Below, in pieces: positions 5,792 to 19,152 of a stretch of DNA of 21,831 bases (within the stretch, counting starts at the first letter, position 1; each line of letters opens with the position of its first letter). Below the pieces are notes generated by a model that worked only from the letters and a program-made list of their open reading frames with translations, did no database searches and had not been told where the DNA came from. Position numbers and translations under genes: made by a program. The DNA comes from Gemmatimonadales bacterium (lineage in GTDB: Bacteria > Gemmatimonadota > Gemmatimonadetes > Gemmatimonadales > GWC2-71-9). The DNA lies in contig DASTUP010000100.1 of assembly GCA_035759585.1 (NCBI GenBank), positions 1-21,831 on the forward strand, read 5' to 3'.

Positions 5792-6517
5792 TCAGTCCAA
5801 TATCGGCGGATCTTCGTTCGGCGGTGTGTTGGGTCCCGGCCGGTCGGTGCGGCGGCGGTCGCGGCGCTGGCCCGCTTCGTACCAGCGGCGGGTTACCTCG
5901 CCCGCGAGCTCGCGGTTGCCGAGGCCGAAGGCGAGTCCCACCGCGAGCGCCACGGCGCCGAGAATCAGCGTGAACGCCGCCGTCACGATCTCCTCTGCGA
6001 CGCCGACCTGCTGCAGCGCCATGAAGATCGCGATCATGATGACCGCGCCCTTCGCGAGCTTGGCGAGGGTCGGAACTCCTTCCACCGTTCCCGCCGACGC
6101 GAGGATCAGCCCGCGCACGAACTCCCCCACGATCATCCCCAGGATCACGACGACGATCGCCGAGATGAGCGTCGGGATGTAGCCGAGCATCAGGCCGAAC
6201 ATCTCGTTGATGCTCTCGAGCCCGAGCGCGGTGCTCGAGAGGAGGATCACCACGAGCATGACCAGCCAGAAGACGAGCTTGGCGAGCGTGCGGATCGGAT
6301 CGAGCCGCGACCCCGTCCGGCCGACGACCTCATCGAGGCCGCCTGCCGCCGCCATCCGGTTGAAGTCCATCCGCTTGAGCGTATCGTCCGCCCACCGCTG
6401 CATCTGCCGCGCGAGGAAGTATCCCGTCAGCAGGATGAGGAGCGCGCCGAGGAGCGCGGGAAGCACGCTTCCGATCTCGCTCGCACCGATCCAGACCCGT
6501 TCCCACAATTCGTTCAC
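5792..6517 (-). CDS. Membrane protein with conserved TM-helix repeats, related to mechanosensitive channels
   Basis: It has several predicted TM helices in two similar halves ('SEIGSVLPALLGALLILLTGYFLAR..' and 'ESINEMFGLMLGYIPTLISAIVVVILGMIVGEF..'). This matches my recollection of the Pfam 'Conserved TM helix' repeat found in MscS-like proteins. The C-terminal tail is charged and Pro-rich. The GTG start at 6517 overlaps the upstream stop as GTGA. Confidence 0.4.
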   Translation of the reverse strand: MNELWERVWIGASEIGSVLPALLGALLILLTGYFLARQMQRWADDTLKRMDFNRMAAAGGLDEVVGRTGSRLDPIRTLAKLVFWLVMLVVILLSSTALGLESINEMFGLMLGYIPTLISAIVVVILGMIVGEFVRGLILASAGTVEGVPTLAKLAKGAVIMIAIFMALQQVGVAEEIVTAAFTLILGAVALAVGLAFGLGNRELAGEVTRRWYEAGQRRDRRRTDRPGPNTPPNEDPPILD

Positions 6518-7551
6518 GACGACACCTCGATCACGAGTTTACCCGACTGCTCTCCGCCGGCGAGAAGGCGGAATGCTTCCACGGCGGAGGCGAGCGGGAG
6601 GACACGATCCACGTGCGGCCACAGTTTTCCCGAATGGGCGAGCGCCACGATCTCGCGGAACTCGGCGCGCGATCCCATCGTCGACCCGAGGAGCGACCAC
6701 TGGTGCCAGAAGAGCCGCCGCACGTCGATGTCCACGATCGGGCCGCTGGTGGCGCCGCAGGTCACCAGTCGGCCGCCGCGCGAGAGGCACCGGAGCGACC
6801 GCTGCCACGTCTTTTCGCCGACGCTGTCCACGACGACCTGCGCACCGCGCCTTCCTGAAATGCGCTTCACCTCGGCCACGACATCCTCACTCGCATGGTT
6901 CACCACGTGGTCGGCGCCGAGCCGCCGCGCGAGCTCGAGCTTGGCGGGCGCGCCGCTCGTCGCGATCACCACCGCGCCGAGGTGCCGCGCGATGCGGATC
7001 GCCGCCTGCGCCACGCCACCGCCGGCGCCCCAGACGAGGACGGTCTCGCCGGCGCGGAGCCGCGCGCGCGTCGTCAGCATCCGCCACGCGGTGAGCGTCG
7101 ACAGCGGAAAGGCGGCCGCTTCGGCCCAGCTCATTCCCTCGGGAACCGGCGCGGCGTTCACCGCCGGGATCACGACATGCTCGGCGATCGTTCCCGCCCG
7201 GTGCTCGCCAAGAATGGCGTAGCGCTCGCAGAGCGGATGATCGCCCCGCCTGCAGGCGTCGCATTCGCCGCACGAGACGCCGGGGTCGAGCATCACCCTG
7301 TCGCCAACCTGGACGCCCTGCACCGCGGATCCGACCGATTCGACCACCCCGGCCGCATCCGACCCGACTACGTGCGGAAGCGGGAGCGAGAATTTCGGCA
7401 GGCCGTTCGCGACGAAGATATCGAGCCGGTTGAGCGCGGCGGCGCGAACCCGGACACGGATCTCGTCAGGCGCCGGGATCCCGGGATCGGGAACTTCGGC
7501 CACCGCGAGATGCTCGATCCCGCCGAGCGCGGCGAGCGTGAGCGCCCGCAT
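6514..7551 (-). CDS. Zinc-containing medium-chain alcohol dehydrogenase or quinone oxidoreductase (MDR family)
   Basis: The N-terminus MRALTLAALGGIEHLAVAEVPDPGIPAPDEIRVRV.. is GroES-like. The structural zinc motif is CGECDACRRGDHPLC. The Rossmann motif is VLVWGAGGGVAQAAIRIAR. The ORF-track N-terminal extension to 7812 is rejected. The ATG at 7549-7551 sits after a GGA, and the upstream gene ends at 7568. Confidence 0.8.
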   Translation of the reverse strand: MRALTLAALGGIEHLAVAEVPDPGIPAPDEIRVRVRAAALNRLDIFVANGLPKFSLPLPHVVGSDAAGVVESVGSAVQGVQVGDRVMLDPGVSCGECDACRRGDHPLCERYAILGEHRAGTIAEHVVIPAVNAAPVPEGMSWAEAAAFPLSTLTAWRMLTTRARLRAGETVLVWGAGGGVAQAAIRIARHLGAVVIATSGAPAKLELARRLGADHVVNHASEDVVAEVKRISGRRGAQVVVDSVGEKTWQRSLRCLSRGGRLVTCGATSGPIVDIDVRRLFWHQWSLLGSTMGSRAEFREIVALAHSGKLWPHVDRVLPLASAVEAFRLLAGGEQSGKLVIEVSS

Positions 7552-7567
7552 CAGGATCCGGCCGCCG

Positions 7568-9817
7568 TCAGAACGATGGCGTGGCGACCTGGTCGCCGGG
7601 CGCGAGGCGCAGCGCGGTCGACGCGGCGCCACCCTCCAGCGGCTGCACCACGAGGCGGTACTCGATCCGTGAGCCGCCGCGGTCGAGCATCCTCCCCGCG
7701 ACGTACGCGATGCGACGGCCATCCGGCGCCGCCGCGAGCGAGAGGATCGGGTCGGGGGATTCCACGACCGGCACCGCTCCGGCCGGACCGAGCCGCATGA
7801 TGACCGCGCCACGCTGCCGCGAGGAGACGTAGAGCAGCGAGCCGTCCGGAAGCCAGCGTGGCGACTGGTCTCGCGCGTCGTCGTTCGTGACGCGCCGCTG
7901 GTTTCCGCCGTCCGGGCCCATGCGATAGATCTCGGCGTTCCCGTCGCGCGCGCTCACGAAGGCGACGCTCCGCCCGTCGGCAGAAACCGACGGCGACCGG
8001 TTGCCCCCCGACGAAGCGGTCAGCACGCGCAGATCGCTTCCATCGAGCGCCACGCTCGCGACCTGCGTCCCGCCGGGCCGGTCCGCCGTGAAGAAGATGC
8101 GCATGCCGTCGGGAGACCAGGCCGGCGCACCCTCGCTGCCCGGCTCGCTCGTGAGCCGGGTGACGTTCGCTCCATCGGCATCCATCACGTAGAGATCGAA
8201 CGTGCCCCCGCGATCGGAGCTGAAGGCGATACGGCTCCGGTCGGGCGAGTACGCTGCTTCGATGTTGGCGGCGCTGTCGGCGAGGATCGGGACGAGCTCG
8301 CTCTCGCCCGGCGTGAAGTGCTGGATGGCGAGCGCCTGCGGAGCGGAGCCGCTCCGGCTCGCCGAGACGAGCAGGTCTCCGGTCACGAACACTTCGGCGG
8401 CGGCGCTCCGAGCGGATGGGCTCGCGGCGGCCACCGTCGCGCGGCCGAGCGCGCGCGCCTCGATCTCTCCGCCGTCGCCGATGGAGACCGCAGGCGAGGA
8501 AGACGACCAGGTGAGCGGCGGCTCGAGGCCGGGAACCAGCGCACCCTGCTCATCGACCACGGTCGCGCGGAGCCGGGTGCGCCCCCCGCGCGCAAGCCCG
8601 ATGCGCGTCCGATCGAGCGAGAGCGCCGCGGGAATCACTTCGACGGTCCACGTGGTCGCTTCGAATCCGTCGAGCCGGGCAGTGAGTGTCGCCGTGCCGG
8701 GCTGCCGCGCCTCGAGGAGTCCCGACTCCGGCGAGAACGTCGCGATCGACGAATCGGGCAGCGTCCACACGATTCCCGCTTCCGCGACCGGCGTCGAGTC
8801 CGCTGAGAGTGCCAGCACCTCGAAACGGCGTGAGGCCCCCGGGACGAGCCGCACGGGTCCCGCGCTCGACCGCGGCGTGATCGTGAGCGAATGCACCGGG
8901 CGGTGCACGAACACCTCCGTCCGCCCGGTCATGCCGTATCCGCTCACCGTCACCACTGCCTCACCGGGGATCCGCGCACGGATCTCCCCGTTGCCGCCGG
9001 CAGTCACGACTGCCGTATCGCTGGACGTCCAGGTGAGGCCCGCGCCAAGTCGCCGTCCGTTCTGCGCGGGGACGCTGGCGATCAGTGTATCGACCGCTCC
9101 GGGCGCCAGCGACGCGCGCTCGAGCGTGGTGAAGAGCGCGGTGTCCACGGACACGAGCACCGTATCGGCCGGCCCCGCAGCCGTCGCCGCTTCGACGAGC
9201 GTCTGGCCGGGGCCGGTGCCGACCACGAGGCCATCCCGGTCCACCGTCGCCACCTTCGTGTCGAGCGTGCGCCAGCGAATCCGTGCGCCGACGGCGGGCG
9301 AACCGTCCGCGAGGCGCGGCGCAACCGAGAGGCGGGCCGGCTCGAGCGGAAGCAGCCAGACGGCGCGCGGCTCGACGCGGATCGACGCCACCGCGACCGT
9401 GGGCGCCCCACCGGTCACGGTCACGGTCGTCCTGGCGGTGAGCGTTCCGGCCCGGGCGACGACTTCGGCGGTTCCCCGGGCAATCGCGAGCACGGTCCCG
9501 TCCTTCGAGACGGTGGCGACCCCGGAATCCGACGATGTAAAGGAGATGCCTGCCGATGTGACCAGGTTCCCCTGCCGATCGTACGCGGCGGCATATATTG
9601 CCTGCCGCTTCCCCGCTTCGAGTGTCAGCGTTTCGGGCGTGAGCTGCAGCTCGGCGGCCTGGGCGACGAGCCGGGCCGGACCGAGCGCCAGCGCGAGCGC
9701 AACGCCGGCAAGCCGGGCCGACCGGGCGAGGAACCTATATATGAAAGGAAGGCCGGCCCGGGCCCGGGCGGGCAAAGCCTCGGTCCGGCCCGTTAACCTC
9801 AAGGGCTTCAACGACAT
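7568..9817 (-). CDS. Secreted multi-domain protein with N-terminal tandem bacterial Ig-like (Big_2-type) domains and a C-terminal TolB-like beta-propeller (PD40 repeats)
   Basis: Big_2-like units include 'SSDSGVATVSKDGTVLAIARGTAEVVARAGT', 'TLDTKVATVDRDGLVVGTGPGQTLVEA', 'SSDTAVVTAGGNGEIRARIPGEAVVTV' and 'LPDSSIATFSPESGLLEARQPGTATLTA'. The C-terminus has 'IAFSSDRGGTFDLYVMDADGANVTRLT..APAWSPDG' PD40/TolB-like repeats. The start is uncertain. The ATG at 9815-9817 (MSLKPLRLTG..) is the only canonical start before the hydrophobic signal segment LAGVALALALGPARLVAQA. Confidence 0.65.
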   Translation of the reverse strand: MSLKPLRLTGRTEALPARARAGLPFIYRFLARSARLAGVALALALGPARLVAQAAELQLTPETLTLEAGKRQAIYAAAYDRQGNLVTSAGISFTSSDSGVATVSKDGTVLAIARGTAEVVARAGTLTARTTVTVTGGAPTVAVASIRVEPRAVWLLPLEPARLSVAPRLADGSPAVGARIRWRTLDTKVATVDRDGLVVGTGPGQTLVEAATAAGPADTVLVSVDTALFTTLERASLAPGAVDTLIASVPAQNGRRLGAGLTWTSSDTAVVTAGGNGEIRARIPGEAVVTVSGYGMTGRTEVFVHRPVHSLTITPRSSAGPVRLVPGASRRFEVLALSADSTPVAEAGIVWTLPDSSIATFSPESGLLEARQPGTATLTARLDGFEATTWTVEVIPAALSLDRTRIGLARGGRTRLRATVVDEQGALVPGLEPPLTWSSSSPAVSIGDGGEIEARALGRATVAAASPSARSAAAEVFVTGDLLVSASRSGSAPQALAIQHFTPGESELVPILADSAANIEAAYSPDRSRIAFSSDRGGTFDLYVMDADGANVTRLTSEPGSEGAPAWSPDGMRIFFTADRPGGTQVASVALDGSDLRVLTASSGGNRSPSVSADGRSVAFVSARDGNAEIYRMGPDGGNQRRVTNDDARDQSPRWLPDGSLLYVSSRQRGAVIMRLGPAGAVPVVESPDPILSLAAAPDGRRIAYVAGRMLDRGGSRIEYRLVVQPLEGGAASTALRLAPGDQVATPSF

Positions 9818-12776: not shown

Positions 12777-13463
12777 TCAGCCGAGCGCGCGCGCCATCCA
12801 GAAGGCACCGGTGAAGATGCCCGCCACGCCGACGATGGCAGCGGCCCACCGGCCGAGCGCGAGCGAGCGGGCGTGCGCGCGCTGCATCAGCAGGGCAGCG
12901 ACCATCGCGAAGAGCGTCATGGCGAGCGTCACGCCCAGGCCGAAGGCCGCGAGATAGCCGAGCCCCGCCCGCATGTCCGCCATGAGCGTCACGGGCACCA
13001 GCGCCACGACCGCGCTCGTGCCGGCGAGACCATGGAGGAAGCCGACGGCGGTGATTCCGCCATGCGAGTGGTCCCGGGCGGCCTCGCCAGCGAGATGCGC
13101 GTGGGAGTGCTCCGCGCCGGCACCGTGCACGTGCAGGTGCGAATGGCCATGCTCCCGCTCGGTGTGCAGGTGCATCCGCCGCGCCGACACGAGCGCCCAC
13201 GCGCCGAGCCCGACGAGCATCGCACCCACGATCGCCTCGCCGAGCGCATCCCACTGCTCGGGCCAGCGGACGCCGAGGAGGAGGAGCGCACCGCCGGCGG
13301 CCAGCACGGCGATCGAGTGCCCGAGGCCCCAGCGGGCGCCGAAGCGCGCGGCGAGCGGGACGCTCGGTCTCCGGCTCACGAATGCCGTGACCGCGAGCAT
13401 GTGGTCGATCTCGAGGGCATGCAGGAAACCGATCATCCCCGCGGTGAGCAGCAGTATCAGCAT
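12777..13463 (-). CDS. NicO/RcnA-family nickel/cobalt transporter with a His-rich loop
   Basis: 'FLHALEIDHM' fits the H-x4-D-H NiCoT/NicO signature. The central loop HTEREHGHSHLHVHGAGAEHSHAHLAGEAARDHSHGG is His-rich as in RcnA-type Ni/Co efflux proteins. It has 6 predicted TM helices in two halves. The ATG is at 13461-13463. Confidence 0.55.
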   Translation of the reverse strand: MLILLLTAGMIGFLHALEIDHMLAVTAFVSRRPSVPLAARFGARWGLGHSIAVLAAGGALLLLGVRWPEQWDALGEAIVGAMLVGLGAWALVSARRMHLHTEREHGHSHLHVHGAGAEHSHAHLAGEAARDHSHGGITAVGFLHGLAGTSAVVALVPVTLMADMRAGLGYLAAFGLGVTLAMTLFAMVAALLMQRAHARSLALGRWAAAIVGVAGIFTGAFWMARALG

Positions 13464-13526
13464 GGGTGGATTCTAGACGTATCGCCTGCGAGTTCCTAAC
13501 GCCTGGTTCTCTTCCCGGAGTCGAAC

Positions 13527-14588
13527 ATGACAGACCAGCGCCCGCGCATCCGCCTCACGTCGCTCTCCCACGGAGCCGGGTGAGCGTGTAAACTCGGCAG
13601 CGCCGAGCTGGCGCAGGTCCTGCGCCTTCTGCCCGCCGTCGAGGATGCCCGGGTCCTCGTCGACGCAGCCACACGGGACGACGCGGCGGTCTTCCGCCTC
13701 TCCGACGATCGCGCCCTCGTGGCGACGGTGGACTTCTTCACGCCCGTCGTCGACGACGCCGCGTCGTGGGGTGCGATCGCCGCGGCGAATGCCCTGAGCG
13801 ACATCTACGCCATGGGGGCCACACCGCTCTTTGCCCTCAACCTCGTGGCGTGGCCGCGATCCGGCGTGCCTTTCGAACTGCTTGGGGACGTGATCAGCGG
13901 CGCGGTGAAGGTGATGCGCAAGGCCGGCTGCCTCATGCTCGGCGGCCATTCGATCGACGACAACGAGCCGAAATTCGGCATGGCCGTCATCGGCGAGGTC
14001 CATCCCGACCGGATGCTGACCGTCGGCGGCGCCAGGGCGGGCGATCTGCTCGTCCTCACCAAGCCGATCGGCACCGGCATCCTGAGCACCGCGCTCAAGC
14101 GCGAAGCGCTCCTCGAGGGAGGCATGTCCGAAGCGATCCAGGCGATGAGCACGCTGAACGACGGTGCCGCGCGCGCCGCGCGCGAAGCCGAGGTTCACGC
14201 CTGCACCGACGTCACCGGCTTCGGGCTCCTCGGCCATCTCGGCAACATCCTGGCGGCGAGCGGGAAGGGCGCGGAGATCTGGCTCGAGGAAATTCCGGTC
14301 TTCCCGCACGTACGGAACCTCGCTGCGCGCGGCCTGGTCCCGGGTGGCACCGAGCGGAACCTCGAGGCCGCCGGCGACGTGCGGTGGGATCCGTCGCTCG
14401 ATCCCACGGAGCGGATCATCTGCGTCGACGCGCAGACCTCCGGCGGCCTCCTCATGGCGGTCGCGCCGGACCGGCACGATGCGCTCATCGACGCCCTTCG
14501 GCGCGAGGGGACGCCGGCGGCCGCCACGATCGGGAGGGTGACGGGCGCAGCGGGCATCGTGCACGTGAGCCGCAGAAGGAACCAATGA
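13527..14588 (+). CDS. selD: Selenide, water dikinase (selenophosphate synthetase) SelD, a selenoprotein with in-frame UGA (Sec) at codon 19
   Basis: The ATG at 13527 lies 6 nt after a GGAG. The protein begins MTDQRPRIRLTSLSHGAG-[TGA 13581-13583]-ACKLGSAELAQVL.., matching the SelD 'SHGAG(C/U)xCK' motif. The downstream frame (ORF-track 13719..14588) aligns along its whole length with E. coli SelD ('DAAV', 'DFFTP', 'GGHSID', 'TDVTGFGLLGHL', 'VPGGTERN', 'QTSGGLL'). The ORF caller lost the first 64 codons at the TGA. Confidence 0.9.
13610..13626 (+). promoter_or_regulatory. Candidate bacterial SECIS apical hairpin for the selD UGA
   Basis: ggcgca-GGUCC-tgcgcc is a 6-bp stem. Its GGUC-containing loop closely resembles the E. 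coli fdhF SECIS apex (..GCAGGUCUGC..). It lies 27-43 nt downstream of the UGA. A second small hairpin, ctcggcAGCgccgag, lies at 13593-13607. Confidence 0.5.
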
Positions 14589-14812
14589 AGAAGTTCCGCT
14601 GGACTCCCTCGCAGATGGATCGCCTGGAGCACGCCGTCCGCAAGGGGCTGCGCGTCGCGGTATCGCGGCGCGGCACCGAGTTCATCGTCGTCGCCATGCG
14701 GCTCACGCAGAAGGACGGCGACGACGCCCTCGTGGGCCACCTCCCGATGACCGGCGACGAGCTCGTCTTCCGCCTGCAGGATCTGGAGTCGTTCCAGGTC
14801 ATCGGCGACTAG
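14585..14812 (+). CDS. Small hypothetical protein (75 aa, no Cys), translationally coupled to selD
   Basis: Its ATG overlaps the selD TGA as ATGA at 14585-14588, and a GAAGGA RBS lies inside the selD 3' end. The sequence MKKFRWTPSQMDRLEHAVRKGLRVAVSRRGTEFIVVAMRL.. has good GC3 bias. I have no confident family assignment. Confidence 0.5.
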   Translation: MKKFRWTPSQMDRLEHAVRKGLRVAVSRRGTEFIVVAMRLTQKDGDDALVGHLPMTGDELVFRLQDLESFQVIGD

Positions 14813-14817
14813 GGCCG

Positions 14818-15465
14818 ATGCCGCAATCCCGATCCGGCTCGATCGCCATCGTGCATCTCGACGAAAGCTGCCTCGGCAACGGGCGCGAAGGCGACAATCC
14901 CGGCGGCGCAGGCGGGCTCATCGAGGTCCGCACCCGGAGCGGGATCCAGCGCCGCGACATCTATCTCTCCGCTCCCGCCACCACCAACAACCGGATGGCC
15001 CTCGCCGGCGCGGCCGAAACGCTCGAGGTCCTCGCCGCCAAGGGAGGGCGGCTCTCCGTCCTGGTCGTGTCCGATTCCGAGTACCTGGTGAAGGGCATGC
15101 GGGAGTGGGCGCCGGGATGGGAGCGCCGAGGCTGGGTCCGGAAGGGCGGCGCGATCGAGAATCTCGCACTCTGGCAGCGGCTCGTTGCCGCGGCCCGGCT
15201 GCACGAGACGCAGCTCACCTGGGTACGCGGGCACAAGGGTCACGCCAAGAACGAGTACGCAAACGACCTTGCCATCCTCGCCGCGCGCGAGCTGCGCGAC
15301 TCGAAGGGAGCGGTCGAATCCGGTTTCCTCGCGTGGCTGGAGACCAAGCGGAAAAGGAAGCTCTATCTCGCGTACGACCCCGACGAGGCCTTTGCCGCGC
15401 TCGAGCAGCGCATGGCTCGCGGCGAGCGCTTCCCGCATTCGGATGCCGCCCTGCCGCTCCGCTAG
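14818..15465 (+). CDS. rnhA: Ribonuclease HI homologue with a ~60-aa basic C-terminal extension and an Ala at the conserved catalytic Glu (E. coli E48 equivalent)
   Basis: It aligns with E. coli RNase HI: 'VHLDESCLGN' (D10), 'TTNNRMALAG' where E. coli has NNRMELMA (E48→A), 'VVSDSEYL' (D70), 'WVRGHKGHAKNEYANDLA' (H124, D134). Confidence 0.75.
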   Translation: MPQSRSGSIAIVHLDESCLGNGREGDNPGGAGGLIEVRTRSGIQRRDIYLSAPATTNNRMALAGAAETLEVLAAKGGRLSVLVVSDSEYLVKGMREWAPGWERRGWVRKGGAIENLALWQRLVAAARLHETQLTWVRGHKGHAKNEYANDLAILAARELRDSKGAVESGFLAWLETKRKRKLYLAYDPDEAFAALEQRMARGERFPHSDAALPLR

Positions 15466-15498
15466 GGTGTCGCCGCCGGCCTGCCTATCTTCCACTGC

Positions 15499-16161
15499 AT
15501 GAGCGATCTCCACCGCCTCTTCTCGCTGATCGTCACCAACATCGCCGCAACCGACGCCTCCCGGCTGCATTCACCGATGACGATCGGCGACCTGATGCAG
15601 CGCGTTGCGCCGTATCGCTCGAGCCGGCGGCACCTCGACGTCGTGACGAGCGAGGAATACGAGCTGCTCATCCTGCGCCTCGCGGCCGGCGAGGAAGGGC
15701 TTGCACGCCTGGAGCCGCCCGAGACGCTGGCGCGGTTCCGGAAGGAGCTGGCAGGTCTCCATCCGGACCTGCACATCCTCACATTCGACGAAGCCGCGAC
15801 GCTCACGCTCTCGCGTGATGCGGTCGCTCACGTCCTTGGCGGGCACGCGGAGCGCGGGTATGCCCCACCGGCCGAGCGAGGCACGCCAGCGGACGCGGCA
15901 CCGCCTGACCACGCAGCCCCTGCCGAGCCGCCCGCGCCGATCGAGGAAGTCGAGATCCTCGAGTGGGAAGCGCCCGGCGAGGTCCATACCGACCGGTGCG
16001 GCTTCTGCGGCGGGACGCTGCCGGTCGGGCGCGCCGTCAACTTCTGCCCGCATTGCGGGCAGTCGCTCCGCGCGCTTCATTGTCCGCAGTGCAACGAAGA
16101 GATCGAGCTGGGGTGGCGCCACTGCGTCGCCTGCGGCGCGGCGCTCGCGGAGCCCTCATGA
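15499..16161 (+). CDS. Hypothetical protein with a C-terminal double zinc-ribbon
   Basis: The C-terminus has four CxxC pairs: CGFCGG..(14)..CPHCG..(8)..CPQC..(11)..CVACG. The N-terminal ~130 aa are unassigned. A Pro/Ala-rich linker joins them. The stop overlaps the thiolase start as ATGA. Confidence 0.5.
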
Positions 16162-17366
16162 CCCTGCCGTCCGTCGTCTTCCTCTCCGGCGTCCGCACCG
16201 GCTTCGGCGCCTTTGGCGGGACCCTCCGCGACATTTCCGCGACCGACCTGGCCGTCGAGGCCGCCACCGCGGCGCTCGCCCGCGCGCAGGTCCCGGCCGA
16301 CCTGGTCGATCACGTCGTCATCGGCAACGTCATCCAGACCTCCGCGGATGCCGCGTACCTCGCCCGGCACGTCGCGCTTCGCGCCGGATGTCCCGTGGAG
16401 ACGCCGGCGGTGACCGTGAACCGCCTCTGCGGCTCCGGCTTCGAGGCCGTCATCAACGGCGCGCAGCAGATCCGGCTCGGCGAGTCGCGCGTCGTGCTCG
16501 CCGGCGGCACCGAGTCGATGAGCCAGGCGCCTCACGTGGTGCGCGGCGCGCGGTGGGGGCTTCGCCTGGGGCCCGCCGCGCCGTTCGAGGACACGCTCTG
16601 GGAAGCGCTGCGCGATTCGCAGTGCGGCCTGTCGATGGCGGAAACGGCGGAGAACCTCGCGACCAGGTTTCAGCTCGGGCGGGAAGACGTGGACGCGGTG
16701 GCGCTCAGGAGCCAGCAGCGCGCCGCGGCGGCGTGGCAGCGCGGGGATTTCGCCGAGGAGGTCGTGCCCGTGCCGGTGAAGAACCGGAAGACGAAGATCG
16801 TCGAGCCGTGGGCGGCGGACGAGCACCTGCGCCCCGACACCTCCAGGGAAGGGCTCGCGCGGCTCCCGCCATACTTCAAGGCGGACGGCGTCGTCACGGC
16901 CGGGAATGCTTCGGGGATCTGCGACGGTGCCGGGGCACTCGTGCTGGCGGACGAGACCGCAGCACGCGAGGCGGGATGGGAGCCGATCGGACGGCTCGTG
17001 TCGTGGGGCGTTGCCGGCGTGGATCCTTCGATCATGGGATTCGGCCCGGTGCCCGCCTCCCGGCTTGCGCTCAGCCGCGCAGGGCTCGGCCTTGCCGAGA
17101 TGGACCGGGTCGAGATCAACGAGGCCTTTGCCGCGCAGTATCTCGCGGTGGAACGCGAGCTCGGCCTCGATCCGGAGCGGACCAACGTGGAAGGCGGTGC
17201 CGTCGCCATCGGGCATCCGCTCGGCGCGAGCGGCGCGCGAATCACGGCGCACCTCCTCCACGCCCTGCGCCGCACCGGCGGCCGTTACGGCCTCGGCAGC
17301 GCCTGCATCGGCGGGGGCCAGGGCGCTGCCGTCATCGTCGAAGCGTTTCCTGCAGCGAAGGAGTGA
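16158..17366 (+). CDS. Acetyl-CoA C-acetyltransferase (thiolase II family)
   Basis: The N-terminus is [21 protein letters not shown]. The active-site Cys is in '[12 protein letters not shown]'. The C-terminal '[13 protein letters not shown]' and '[13 protein letters not shown]' are thiolase signatures. The ORF-track 5' extension (15963) is rejected. The ATG at 16158 overlaps the upstream stop. Confidence 0.85.
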
Positions 17367-17368
17367 CC

Positions 17369-18286
17369 ATGGAAATCGCACTCACGGCGCTCGCCCTTGC
17401 CGTCGCGTACACGTTCGCGAGCATCCGCGTGATCCGGCAGTACGATCGTGCGGTGACGTTCTTCCTCGGCCGCTTCTCCGGCACCAAGGGGCCGGGACTC
17501 ATCTTTCTCCCCGCGTTCTTCGCCGGGATGAAGCGGGTCTCGCTCCGGATCGTAGCGATGGATATCCCGCCGCAGGACGTCATCACGCGCGACAACGTCT
17601 CGGTACGGGTCAATGCGGTTCTCTACATGCGGGCGAGCGATCCCGAGCGTGTCGTGATGGAAGTCGAGGATTACCTCTATGCGACGAGTCAGCTCGCGCA
17701 GACCACGCTTCGATCGGTGCTTGGCGAAGTCGAGCTGGACGAGCTCCTCTCCGACCGCGAGAAGATCAACGCCGTCCTCAAGCGGATCATCGACGAGCGG
17801 ACCGACCAGTGGGGCATCCACGTTTCCGCCGTCGAGGTGAAGGACGTGGATCTTCCGGAGCAGATGAAGCGCGCGATGGCCCGCCAGGCCGAGGCCGAGC
17901 GGGAGCGGCGGGCCAAGGTCATCGCGGCCCAGGGAGAGCTGCAGGCGTCGGAGACACTGGCGCAGGCCGCCCACACGCTGGCCACCGAGCCGATGTCGCT
18001 CCAGCTCCGGTACCTGCAGACCGTGATCGAGATCGCGTCGGAGAACAACTCCACCACGATCTTCCCGATCCCGATCGACATGATCAGGCCGTTCATGGAT
18101 ATCGCCGGGGGGGCTGCCGCAGGCGTGGCCGCGCGCGCTTCGCGCGGCAGTGAGATCACCGCCGGCTCGAAGACGGCTGCCCTGCCTTCGCCGGACCCGA
18201 CACTGCCGCAGTTCCGGATCGAGGAGCGCGCACGCGAGCGGGCCGCCGCGGAGGAGAAGAAGAACGGAGGAACGGAAGCCGGATGA
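17369..18286 (+). CDS. SPFH/band-7 (stomatin/prohibitin-like) membrane protein
   Basis: A GAAGGAG RBS sits at 17357-17363. The N-terminal TM helix is [19 protein letters not shown]. '[28 protein letters not shown]' and '[27 protein letters not shown]..' are typical SPFH. A coiled-coil Ala/Glu-rich segment follows ('[29 protein letters not shown]'), and the C-terminus is 'IFPIPID'. Confidence 0.8.
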
Positions 18287-19152
18287 CCGGAGGCCCTCCC
18301 GCCCGGATCGACCGCGCAGCGCTGGAGCGCATTCTCCAGCGCGCCGCGGAGCTGCAGGCGTCCGAGCACGAAGGGGAGCACCTCTCCCCCGACGAGATCC
18401 TGACGCTCGGCAAGGAAGTCGGCATTCCCCAGCGCCACCTGCAGCAGGCAATCCTGGAGGAGCGGACGCGCGTGAGCGTGGCCGATCCGTCGGGCCTGAT
18501 CGACCGCATGGCAGGACCTGCGACCGCCACGGCGCAGCGTGTGGTGCAGGGTGACGTCGAGCGCATCGAGGCGGCGCTCGTGGCGTACATGGAGGAGCAC
18601 GAGCTGCTCTGCATCCAGCGCCGCCAGCCGGGACGCGTCACGTGGGAGCCGATCGGCGGCTTCCAGGCAACGATCCGCCGCTCGACTGCCGCCTTCGGCT
18701 CGGGAAAGCGGCCGTTCATGCTCGACCGCGCAAAGGTCGTCTCCGCCACAGTCGTTCCGCTCGAGGCGGGATACGTCCACGTGACGCTCGTCGCCGATCT
18801 CCGGCCGACGCGCGCCGGGTTCATCGGTGGCGCGGCCGCGCTCGGCTCGGCGGGCGTGGCGGGGGCGGCGGTGCTCCTGGCGCTCGGCGCTTTTCCGTTG
18901 ATTGCGATCGCCCCCGTCGCACTCGGCGCGGGCCTCGGCTTCGGCACGATCCGGCAGTATCCGCCCCGCGTGGAGCGGGTGCTCCTCGGCCTCGAGCGCG
19001 CGCTCGATCACGTCGAGCAGGGAACCGTGAAGGCGCGCCATCAGCTGCCGCCGCGGACGCCGGGCCTCGCGTCGCTGATCACCGACGAGATCCGCAAGGC
19101 GATCACTTCCGCGTCGGAGCGTGAGCGCGGCAAGCACGGAGGGAAGCCGTGA
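18283..19152 (+). CDS. Hypothetical membrane protein (soluble N-domain plus a C-terminal pair of TM helices), translationally coupled to the SPFH gene
   Basis: It overlaps the upstream stop as ATGA at 18283-18286. GC3 bias is strong. A Gly/Ala-rich double TM segment, [42 protein letters not shown], is followed by a ~60-aa tail. I recognise no family, and it is not NfeD-like. Confidence 0.5.

Follow-up and report, generated by a model that had tools for sequence, protein, structure and literature searches.

In an uncultured, soil-type, Gemmatimonadales-like bacterium, the selD gene very probably encodes a selenoprotein, in which an in-frame UGA at the catalytic position is read as selenocysteine (Sec). 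The gene lies on the forward strand of the stretch of DNA analyzed here (hereafter the window; 21,831 nucleotides with a G+C content of 70%). Its full-length coding sequence occupies positions 13527..14588 and comprises 353 codons including Sec19, from the ATG at 13527-13529 to the TGA stop at 14586-14588. The only interruption of this open reading frame is a TGA at 13581-13583, the predicted Sec codon (residue 19). Translated in frame from the ATG at 13527, the sequence reads MTDQRPRIRLTSLSHGAG-TGA-ACKLG, and beyond the TGA the frame continues as ACKLGSAELAQVLRLLP and stays open until the stop codon at 14586-14588. An RBS, GGAG, was read from the sequence at 13517-13520 on the same strand, with a 6-nt spacer before the ATG, and GGAG or GGAGG was found in the same position upstream of selD in related loci (L001, L004, L007, L019, L025, L026, and L042), showing that the start context is kept in relatives. 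We propose that translation would start at the ATG at 13527, that Sec would be inserted at residue 19, in the glycine-rich catalytic loop (SHGAG-U-ACK), through presumed binding of SelB, and that translation would then go on to the stop at 14586-14588 to yield a 353-residue selenophosphate synthetase with selenium putatively incorporated at residue 19.

The family identity of the product includes its N-terminus. For profile searches, the TGA was read as Cys in the 353-residue product, and this sequence matched the NCBIfam model TIGR00476 (selD) with a score of 374.8 bits, above the cutoff of 125, and residues 9-316 covered profile positions 1-310. Since the match begins at position 1 of the profile, the N-terminal extension belongs to the SelD family match. 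A second model, NF002098, was matched with 353.4 bits (cutoff 299), and a phmmer comparison with the E. coli SelD structure 3u0o gave an E value of 6e-70 over residues 7-327. In the alignment, SHGAG-[TGA]-ACK was paired with E. coli SHGAGCGCK, placing residue 19 on the catalytic Cys17 and Lys22 (AAA codon at 13590-13592, forward strand) on Lys20 of the catalytic N-terminal loop. Residue 19 also aligned with the Sec13 position of the Aquifex SelD, which is Cys in the crystallized form. The ORF caller, by comparison, chose as start a GTG at 13719-13721 on the same strand, which is residue 65 of the real protein and an artifactual start; the codon for Lys22 lies between the TGA and this GTG and is therefore encoded only in the read-through product. 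The original prediction had the gene start at the ATG at 13527 behind a GGAG RBS, put the UGA on the catalytic Cys/Sec site, assigned the 64 codons upstream of 13719 to SelD, and noted that the ORF track began at 13719, where the GTG indeed stands in the mechanical ORF list; all of this was borne out, and its coordinates were correct throughout.

We compared the codon at the catalytic site across relatives of the gene. A protein search returned approximately 95 full-length relatives with approximately 70% identity, all of which read SHGAGCACKLG with Cys at the site; many full-length Cys-type relatives are named Gemmatimonadales by their source. At the nucleotide level, six syntenic loci (L001-L006), whose sources are soil-type metagenome scaffolds in ENA and three MAGs at NCBI, carried the same TGA behind the upstream peptide M-A-DQRPRIRLTSLSHGAG. 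A scan of species-representative genomes contributed 80 further loci, giving 87 sequences in all, in which the aligned catalytic codon was TGA in 27 cases, TGC or TGT in 54, and TAA or TAG in none. The TGA-type selD was found in Gemmatimonadales, Longimicrobiales, Actinomycetota, Marinimicrobia, and Chloroflexi MAGs, and a neighbor-joining tree showed Sec-type and Cys-type genes interleaved inside Gemmatimonadales. The reading frame is also constrained around the codon. Over the 13 codons 5' of the TGA, we counted 3-9 synonymous differences from relatives and 0-1 nonsynonymous ones, and the 45 codons from the TGA to the caller's start at 13719 were likewise conserved at the protein level; strong purifying selection thus acts on both sides of the retained TGA.

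Downstream of the UGA, the window contains a hairpin, hereafter H2, with the sequence GGCGCAG-GUC-CUGCGCC (positions 13610-13626, forward strand; +30 to +46 counted from the U of the UGA), in a stretch that encodes L-A-Q-V-L-R. It was present in the MFE fold of 13581-13650, with a free energy of -11.3 kcal/mol for the 17-nt hairpin; the extended fold reached -29 to -32 kcal/mol. The bacterial SECIS model of Zhang and Gladyshev (Fig. 2) describes an apical loop of 3-9 nt on an upper stem of 4-16 bp, a G at loop position 1 or 2, usually followed by G or U, a distance of 16-37 nt from the UGA to the apical loop, and an MFE no higher than -7.5 kcal/mol (PMC13188914). H2 has a 7-bp stem with a 3-nt loop (or 6 bp with 5 nt), its loop reads G-U-C, the loop lies 33 nt from the UGA (32 if the loop is taken as GGUCC), a distance close to the upper limit of the range, and its MFE is well within the limit. 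The SECIS-like GGUC hairpin at 13610-13626 that the original prediction described is thus present and agrees with the published model on all four counts. The loop residues G37 and U38 were invariant in 21 Sec-type sequences, although a conserved Val codon begins with these two bases, so that their invariance is confounded with constraint on the protein. At the whole-window level, a search of Rfam at the gathering threshold gave no hits, and a permissive Rfam search of 13480-13760 returned only noise (E values of 0.28 or higher and at most 22 bits, against cutoffs of 45-99).

Taken by itself, H2 is statistically ordinary in DNA of 70% GC. The fold z-score of the region was -1.69, and 48 of the 400 TGA triplets in the window (12%) precede a hairpin that passes relaxed bSECIS-like rules. 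The significance of H2 therefore comes from the comparative data and not from the lone hairpin. In 20 unique Sec-type sequences, the helix formed by +30..+36 and +40..+46 had on average 6.75 of its 7 pairs and a mean free energy of -11.3 kcal/mol, compared to 3.8 of 7 pairs and -4.1 kcal/mol at the same positions in 54 Cys-type sequences (Mann-Whitney p=3e-10 for pairing, uncorrected for phylogeny; because the Sec-type sequences share ancestry, p-values of this kind overstate their independence). Across an alignment of 21 sequences (A2), 96.6% of the H2 cells were paired and changes on both sides were seen at five of the seven pairs, while the pairing in slid controls was 31-56% and none of 500 shuffles reached the observed values by any measure. 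RNAalifold independently predicted the helix. Compensated stems were found in L066 (GACGCAG/CUGCGUC), L076 (GGCUCAG/CUGAGUC), L077 (GGCGCAA/UUGCGUC), and L084 (CGCCCAG/CUGGGCG, with the loop GUG in the same register), and the register of H2 was constant in Sec-type genes of several phyla. A search of approximately 1.37 Mb, both strands included, gave 28 sites at which the core motif is accompanied by a paired stem; 24 of these were selD sites with a TGA exactly 30 nt upstream. The encoded peptide followed the same division: LAQVLR was kept in nearly all Sec-type genes, while the Cys-type genes varied (LAEVLR, LSQVLR, LRTVLG). Together, these results identified a conserved, covarying hairpin that is specific to Sec-type genes and fits the published bacterial SECIS model.

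A second, smaller hairpin (H1, CUCGGC-AGC-GCCGAG; positions 13593-13607, forward strand) lies between the UGA and the SECIS, and we considered it as a further part of the element. In Sec-type genes, 80.8% of its cells were paired and three of six pairs covaried. However, the Cys-type relatives were nearly as well paired (3.85 of 6 pairs, compared to 4.85), and RNAalifold did not predict H1. We therefore did not retain H1, which is not convincingly Sec-specific and is possibly a by-product of the codons.

Three of the collected loci deviated from the common pattern. In a Chloroflexi MAG (L084:4472-4531, WHTR01000001.1), the Sec-type selD has the loop motif HCAG-U-ASK in place of HGAG-U-ACK, together with extensive compensation in its SECIS stem. 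In an Actinomycetes MAG (L078:10049-10108, JAGXFW010000024.1), the catalytic TGA is present and the hairpin is absent from its usual register, with 4 of 7 pairs; this gene may have a different SECIS or a genuine defect. Finally, the selD of a Gemmatimonadaceae MAG (L016:10049-10108, CAZASU010000028.1) has TGC at the catalytic site together with a hairpin of 7/7 pairs (GGCGCAG-GUU-CUGCGCC), and this Cys-type gene is nested in a Sec-type clade of the neighbor-joining tree. We read it as an apparently recent change from Sec to Cys that has left a fossil SECIS behind.

We also searched for the Sec decoding machinery. ARAGORN detected no tRNA-Sec in the window or in the 86 related loci, and E. coli SelA, SelB, and the C-terminal portion of SelB produced no tblastn hits in the window or in any locus. 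The searches covered ±10 kb around selD in these 86 loci (1.35 Mb) and yielded neither selA nor selB nor tRNA-Sec; the window contains no tRNA gene of any kind. As the machinery is absent from the window and the flanks searched, its existence is deduced from selD itself, and it is reasonable to expect selA, selB, and tRNA-Sec elsewhere in the genome of this organism. This absence is one of two observations in favor of a different reading, in which the UGA is decoded by other means, either by a near-cognate Trp or Cys tRNA or through a lineage-wide reassignment, and the hairpin acts as a generic stimulator of read-through; the other is that stem-loops after a UGA can promote read-through without Sec in some eukaryotic SPS genes (PMC4561486). 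However, TGA is an ordinary stop elsewhere in the window, where it ends 14 of the 19 likely genes, so the code is standard and the recoding local. Furthermore, the UGA falls precisely on the catalytic Cys/Sec residue, the hairpin, which has a G-U loop and shares its core with fdhF, matches the SelB-type bSECIS model, and SelD is well documented as a bacterial selenoprotein (PMC13188914). We consider decoding without Sec improbable, although it is the strongest of the alternatives to Sec insertion.

A less probable alternative is that the short protein made from an internal start (the GTG at 13719 or a similar codon) is the functional product, the upstream 18-codon ORF being a leader peptide or a regulatory uORF. 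This is what gene callers report for the window and its 24 nearest homologs: these homologs, with identities of 83-99%, are without exception called at a reduced length of 287-318 amino acids, with starts after the TGA position. The called lengths vary among relatives, however (288, 308, 309, and 318 amino acids), and such inconsistent internal starts are expected of artifacts. A product of this kind would be without the glycine-rich loop, the catalytic Sec/Cys, and Lys22. It would also leave out the 45 codons that separate the TGA from 13719, a stretch conserved at the protein level and aligned to the SelD profile; we regard this alternative as very unlikely. Least credible of all is a pseudogene, or a Cys-type selD in which the stop arose through an error of sequencing or assembly. 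A single TGC-to-TGA change would be enough for this, and it would fit the treatment of selD as truncated by automatic callers, but it is contradicted by the recurrence of the same TGA, and never TAA or TAG, in 27 loci that were assembled independently and represent several phyla, by the strong purifying selection on both sides of it, and by a hairpin that is restricted to TGA genes and covaries with the TGA. Conservation of the TGA, coding constraint on both sides, and the standard code together effectively exclude a pseudogene, an assembly error, and a reassignment of the code, and leave Sec insertion at residue 19 as by far the best explanation.

The original prediction had also recommended reinspecting any gene of the window that appears truncated at a TGA. 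We did so and found no other TGA-interrupted gene in the window. An in-frame stop at 18151-18153, in the frame of the ORF at 18154-19152, was considered as a second recoding site and rejected, since the frame upstream of it is Arg-rich junk. A GC3-based scan for a two-sided coding signal flagged one site only, a TGA at 6856 on the forward strand, which is antisense to a well-supported zinc-dependent alcohol dehydrogenase gene (6514-7812, reverse strand) and proved to be a frame-mirroring artifact.

The genes around selD are shared among relatives of both types. Directly 3' of selD is a 75-amino-acid ORF (14585-14812, forward strand), whose ATG overlaps the selD stop codon (ATGA). The same ORF follows selD in 56 related Gemmatimonadales-type loci, at 47-97% identity, next to Sec-type and Cys-type genes alike; it had no hit in NCBIfam and no significant hit in Pfam, and it may be a lineage-specific SelD-linked protein. 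It is followed by genes for an RNase H (14818-15465), a double-zinc-ribbon protein (15499-16161), and a thiolase (about 16170-17366), and this order from selD to the thiolase (13527-17366) was seen in most of the Gemmatimonadales loci fetched, with either type of selD. In L001 (10864-11814), as well as in L002 and L003, an extra 316-amino-acid gene without a Pfam family is inserted between selD and the small ORF; this gene belongs to the ROVI19-1 metagenome scaffolds and occurs neither in the window nor in L004-L006. On the other side, divergent from selD, lies a gene for a 228-amino-acid membrane protein (12777-13463, reverse strand), and the same divergent neighbor accompanies selD in 18 other loci, Sec-type and Cys-type ones among them. 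No significant NCBIfam or Pfam family was assigned to this protein, whose only family signal was subthreshold: Pfam DsbD_2 matched with an E value of 1.6e-4 and a score of 22.1 bits, below the cutoff of 24.9. It is conceivably a transporter with a link to the handling of selenium or sulfur.

The main value of this analysis is a correction of annotation. The selD of the window and its 24 closest database relatives are recorded as truncated at the N-terminus, with the catalytic loop missing, and are in fact full-length selenoproteins. The gene also marks a Gemmatimonadales lineage as a user of selenocysteine, so that selA, selB, and selC are to be expected elsewhere in the genome, possibly along with further misannotated selenoproteins. 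In addition, the loci provide a clean comparative set, in which Sec and Cys orthologs are interleaved within one order and the SECIS is essentially confined to the Sec type, with L016 as the Cys-type exception. The result leaves the understanding of Sec decoding unchanged: the locus is an ordinary member of the known Sec-type SelD class, in a lineage for which we found no specific report, our literature search on Gemmatimonadota selenoproteins having returned nothing specific. A more far-reaching reading joins four points: that the SECIS of selD is one ancient element, held at +30 to +46 in Gemmatimonadota, Chloroflexota, Actinomycetota, and Marinimicrobia and forcing LAQVLR on the protein; that Gemmatimonadales switched repeatedly between Sec and Cys, leaving the fossil SECIS in L016; that SelD is the main or only selenoprotein sustaining the Sec trait in these soil lineages; and that the translationally coupled 75-amino-acid ORF is an unrecognized partner in selenium handling. 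We offer these four points jointly as a speculation, and think it rather unlikely that all of them hold.

Sec-type SelD proteins are known from, for example, Haemophilus influenzae, Aquifex aeolicus (Sec13), many Deltaproteobacteria, and Clostridia, and the original prediction placed Sec16 of the H. influenzae enzyme at the catalytic Cys/Sec position studied here. Like bacterial Sec-type SelD in general, the selD of the window belongs to family TIGR00476, has its UGA at the catalytic site, and carries its SECIS within the coding sequence just downstream. It differs from the known examples in that its host is an uncultured Gemmatimonadales-like bacterium and that its closest database entries are all miscalled as truncated. 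Compared to the Cys-type SelD of most Gemmatimonadales, the protein is approximately 70% identical and the gene neighborhood is the same, but the Cys-type genes have TGC or TGT for TGA and the conserved hairpin is absent; the E. coli SelD is likewise of the Cys type (Cys17). SelD is the second most widespread selenoprotein family in prokaryotes, with Sec in an N-terminal flexible loop (PMC13188914), and Sec/Cys exchanges in SelD have been documented (PMC1794560; PMC4561486). The patchy Sec/Cys distribution observed here is the pattern described for this family (PMC1794560, PMC4561486, PMC13188914).

The likeness of the hairpin to the apical stem-loop of the E. coli fdhF SECIS, which had been part of the original prediction, was confirmed. 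The fdhF reference used for this comparison was verified against annotated fdhF genes, with which it agreed at 100% identity along 480 nt. Both elements are stem-loops in the coding region 3' of the UGA, with G-U in a small apical loop, and they have the core GCAGGUC..UGC in common (fdhF, GGUUGCAGGUCUGCACC; window, GGCGCAGGUCCUGCGCC). However, the upper stem of fdhF has a bulged U, while the stem of H2 is perfect, and the loop is GGUC in fdhF and GUC in H2 (or GGUCC if the closing G-C pair opens). The two also differ in their distance from the UGA, with 18 nt to the loop in fdhF and 32-33 nt in H2, so that the loop G-U is at +23/+24 and +37/+38, respectively, about 14 nt further from the UGA in the window. 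This longer spacer is possibly filled by the extra small hairpin at 13593-13607. H2 has neither the bulged U nor the loop G-U approximately 20 nt after the UGA that mark the fdhF type specifically; the SECIS of the window resembles that of fdhF without being a copy of it.
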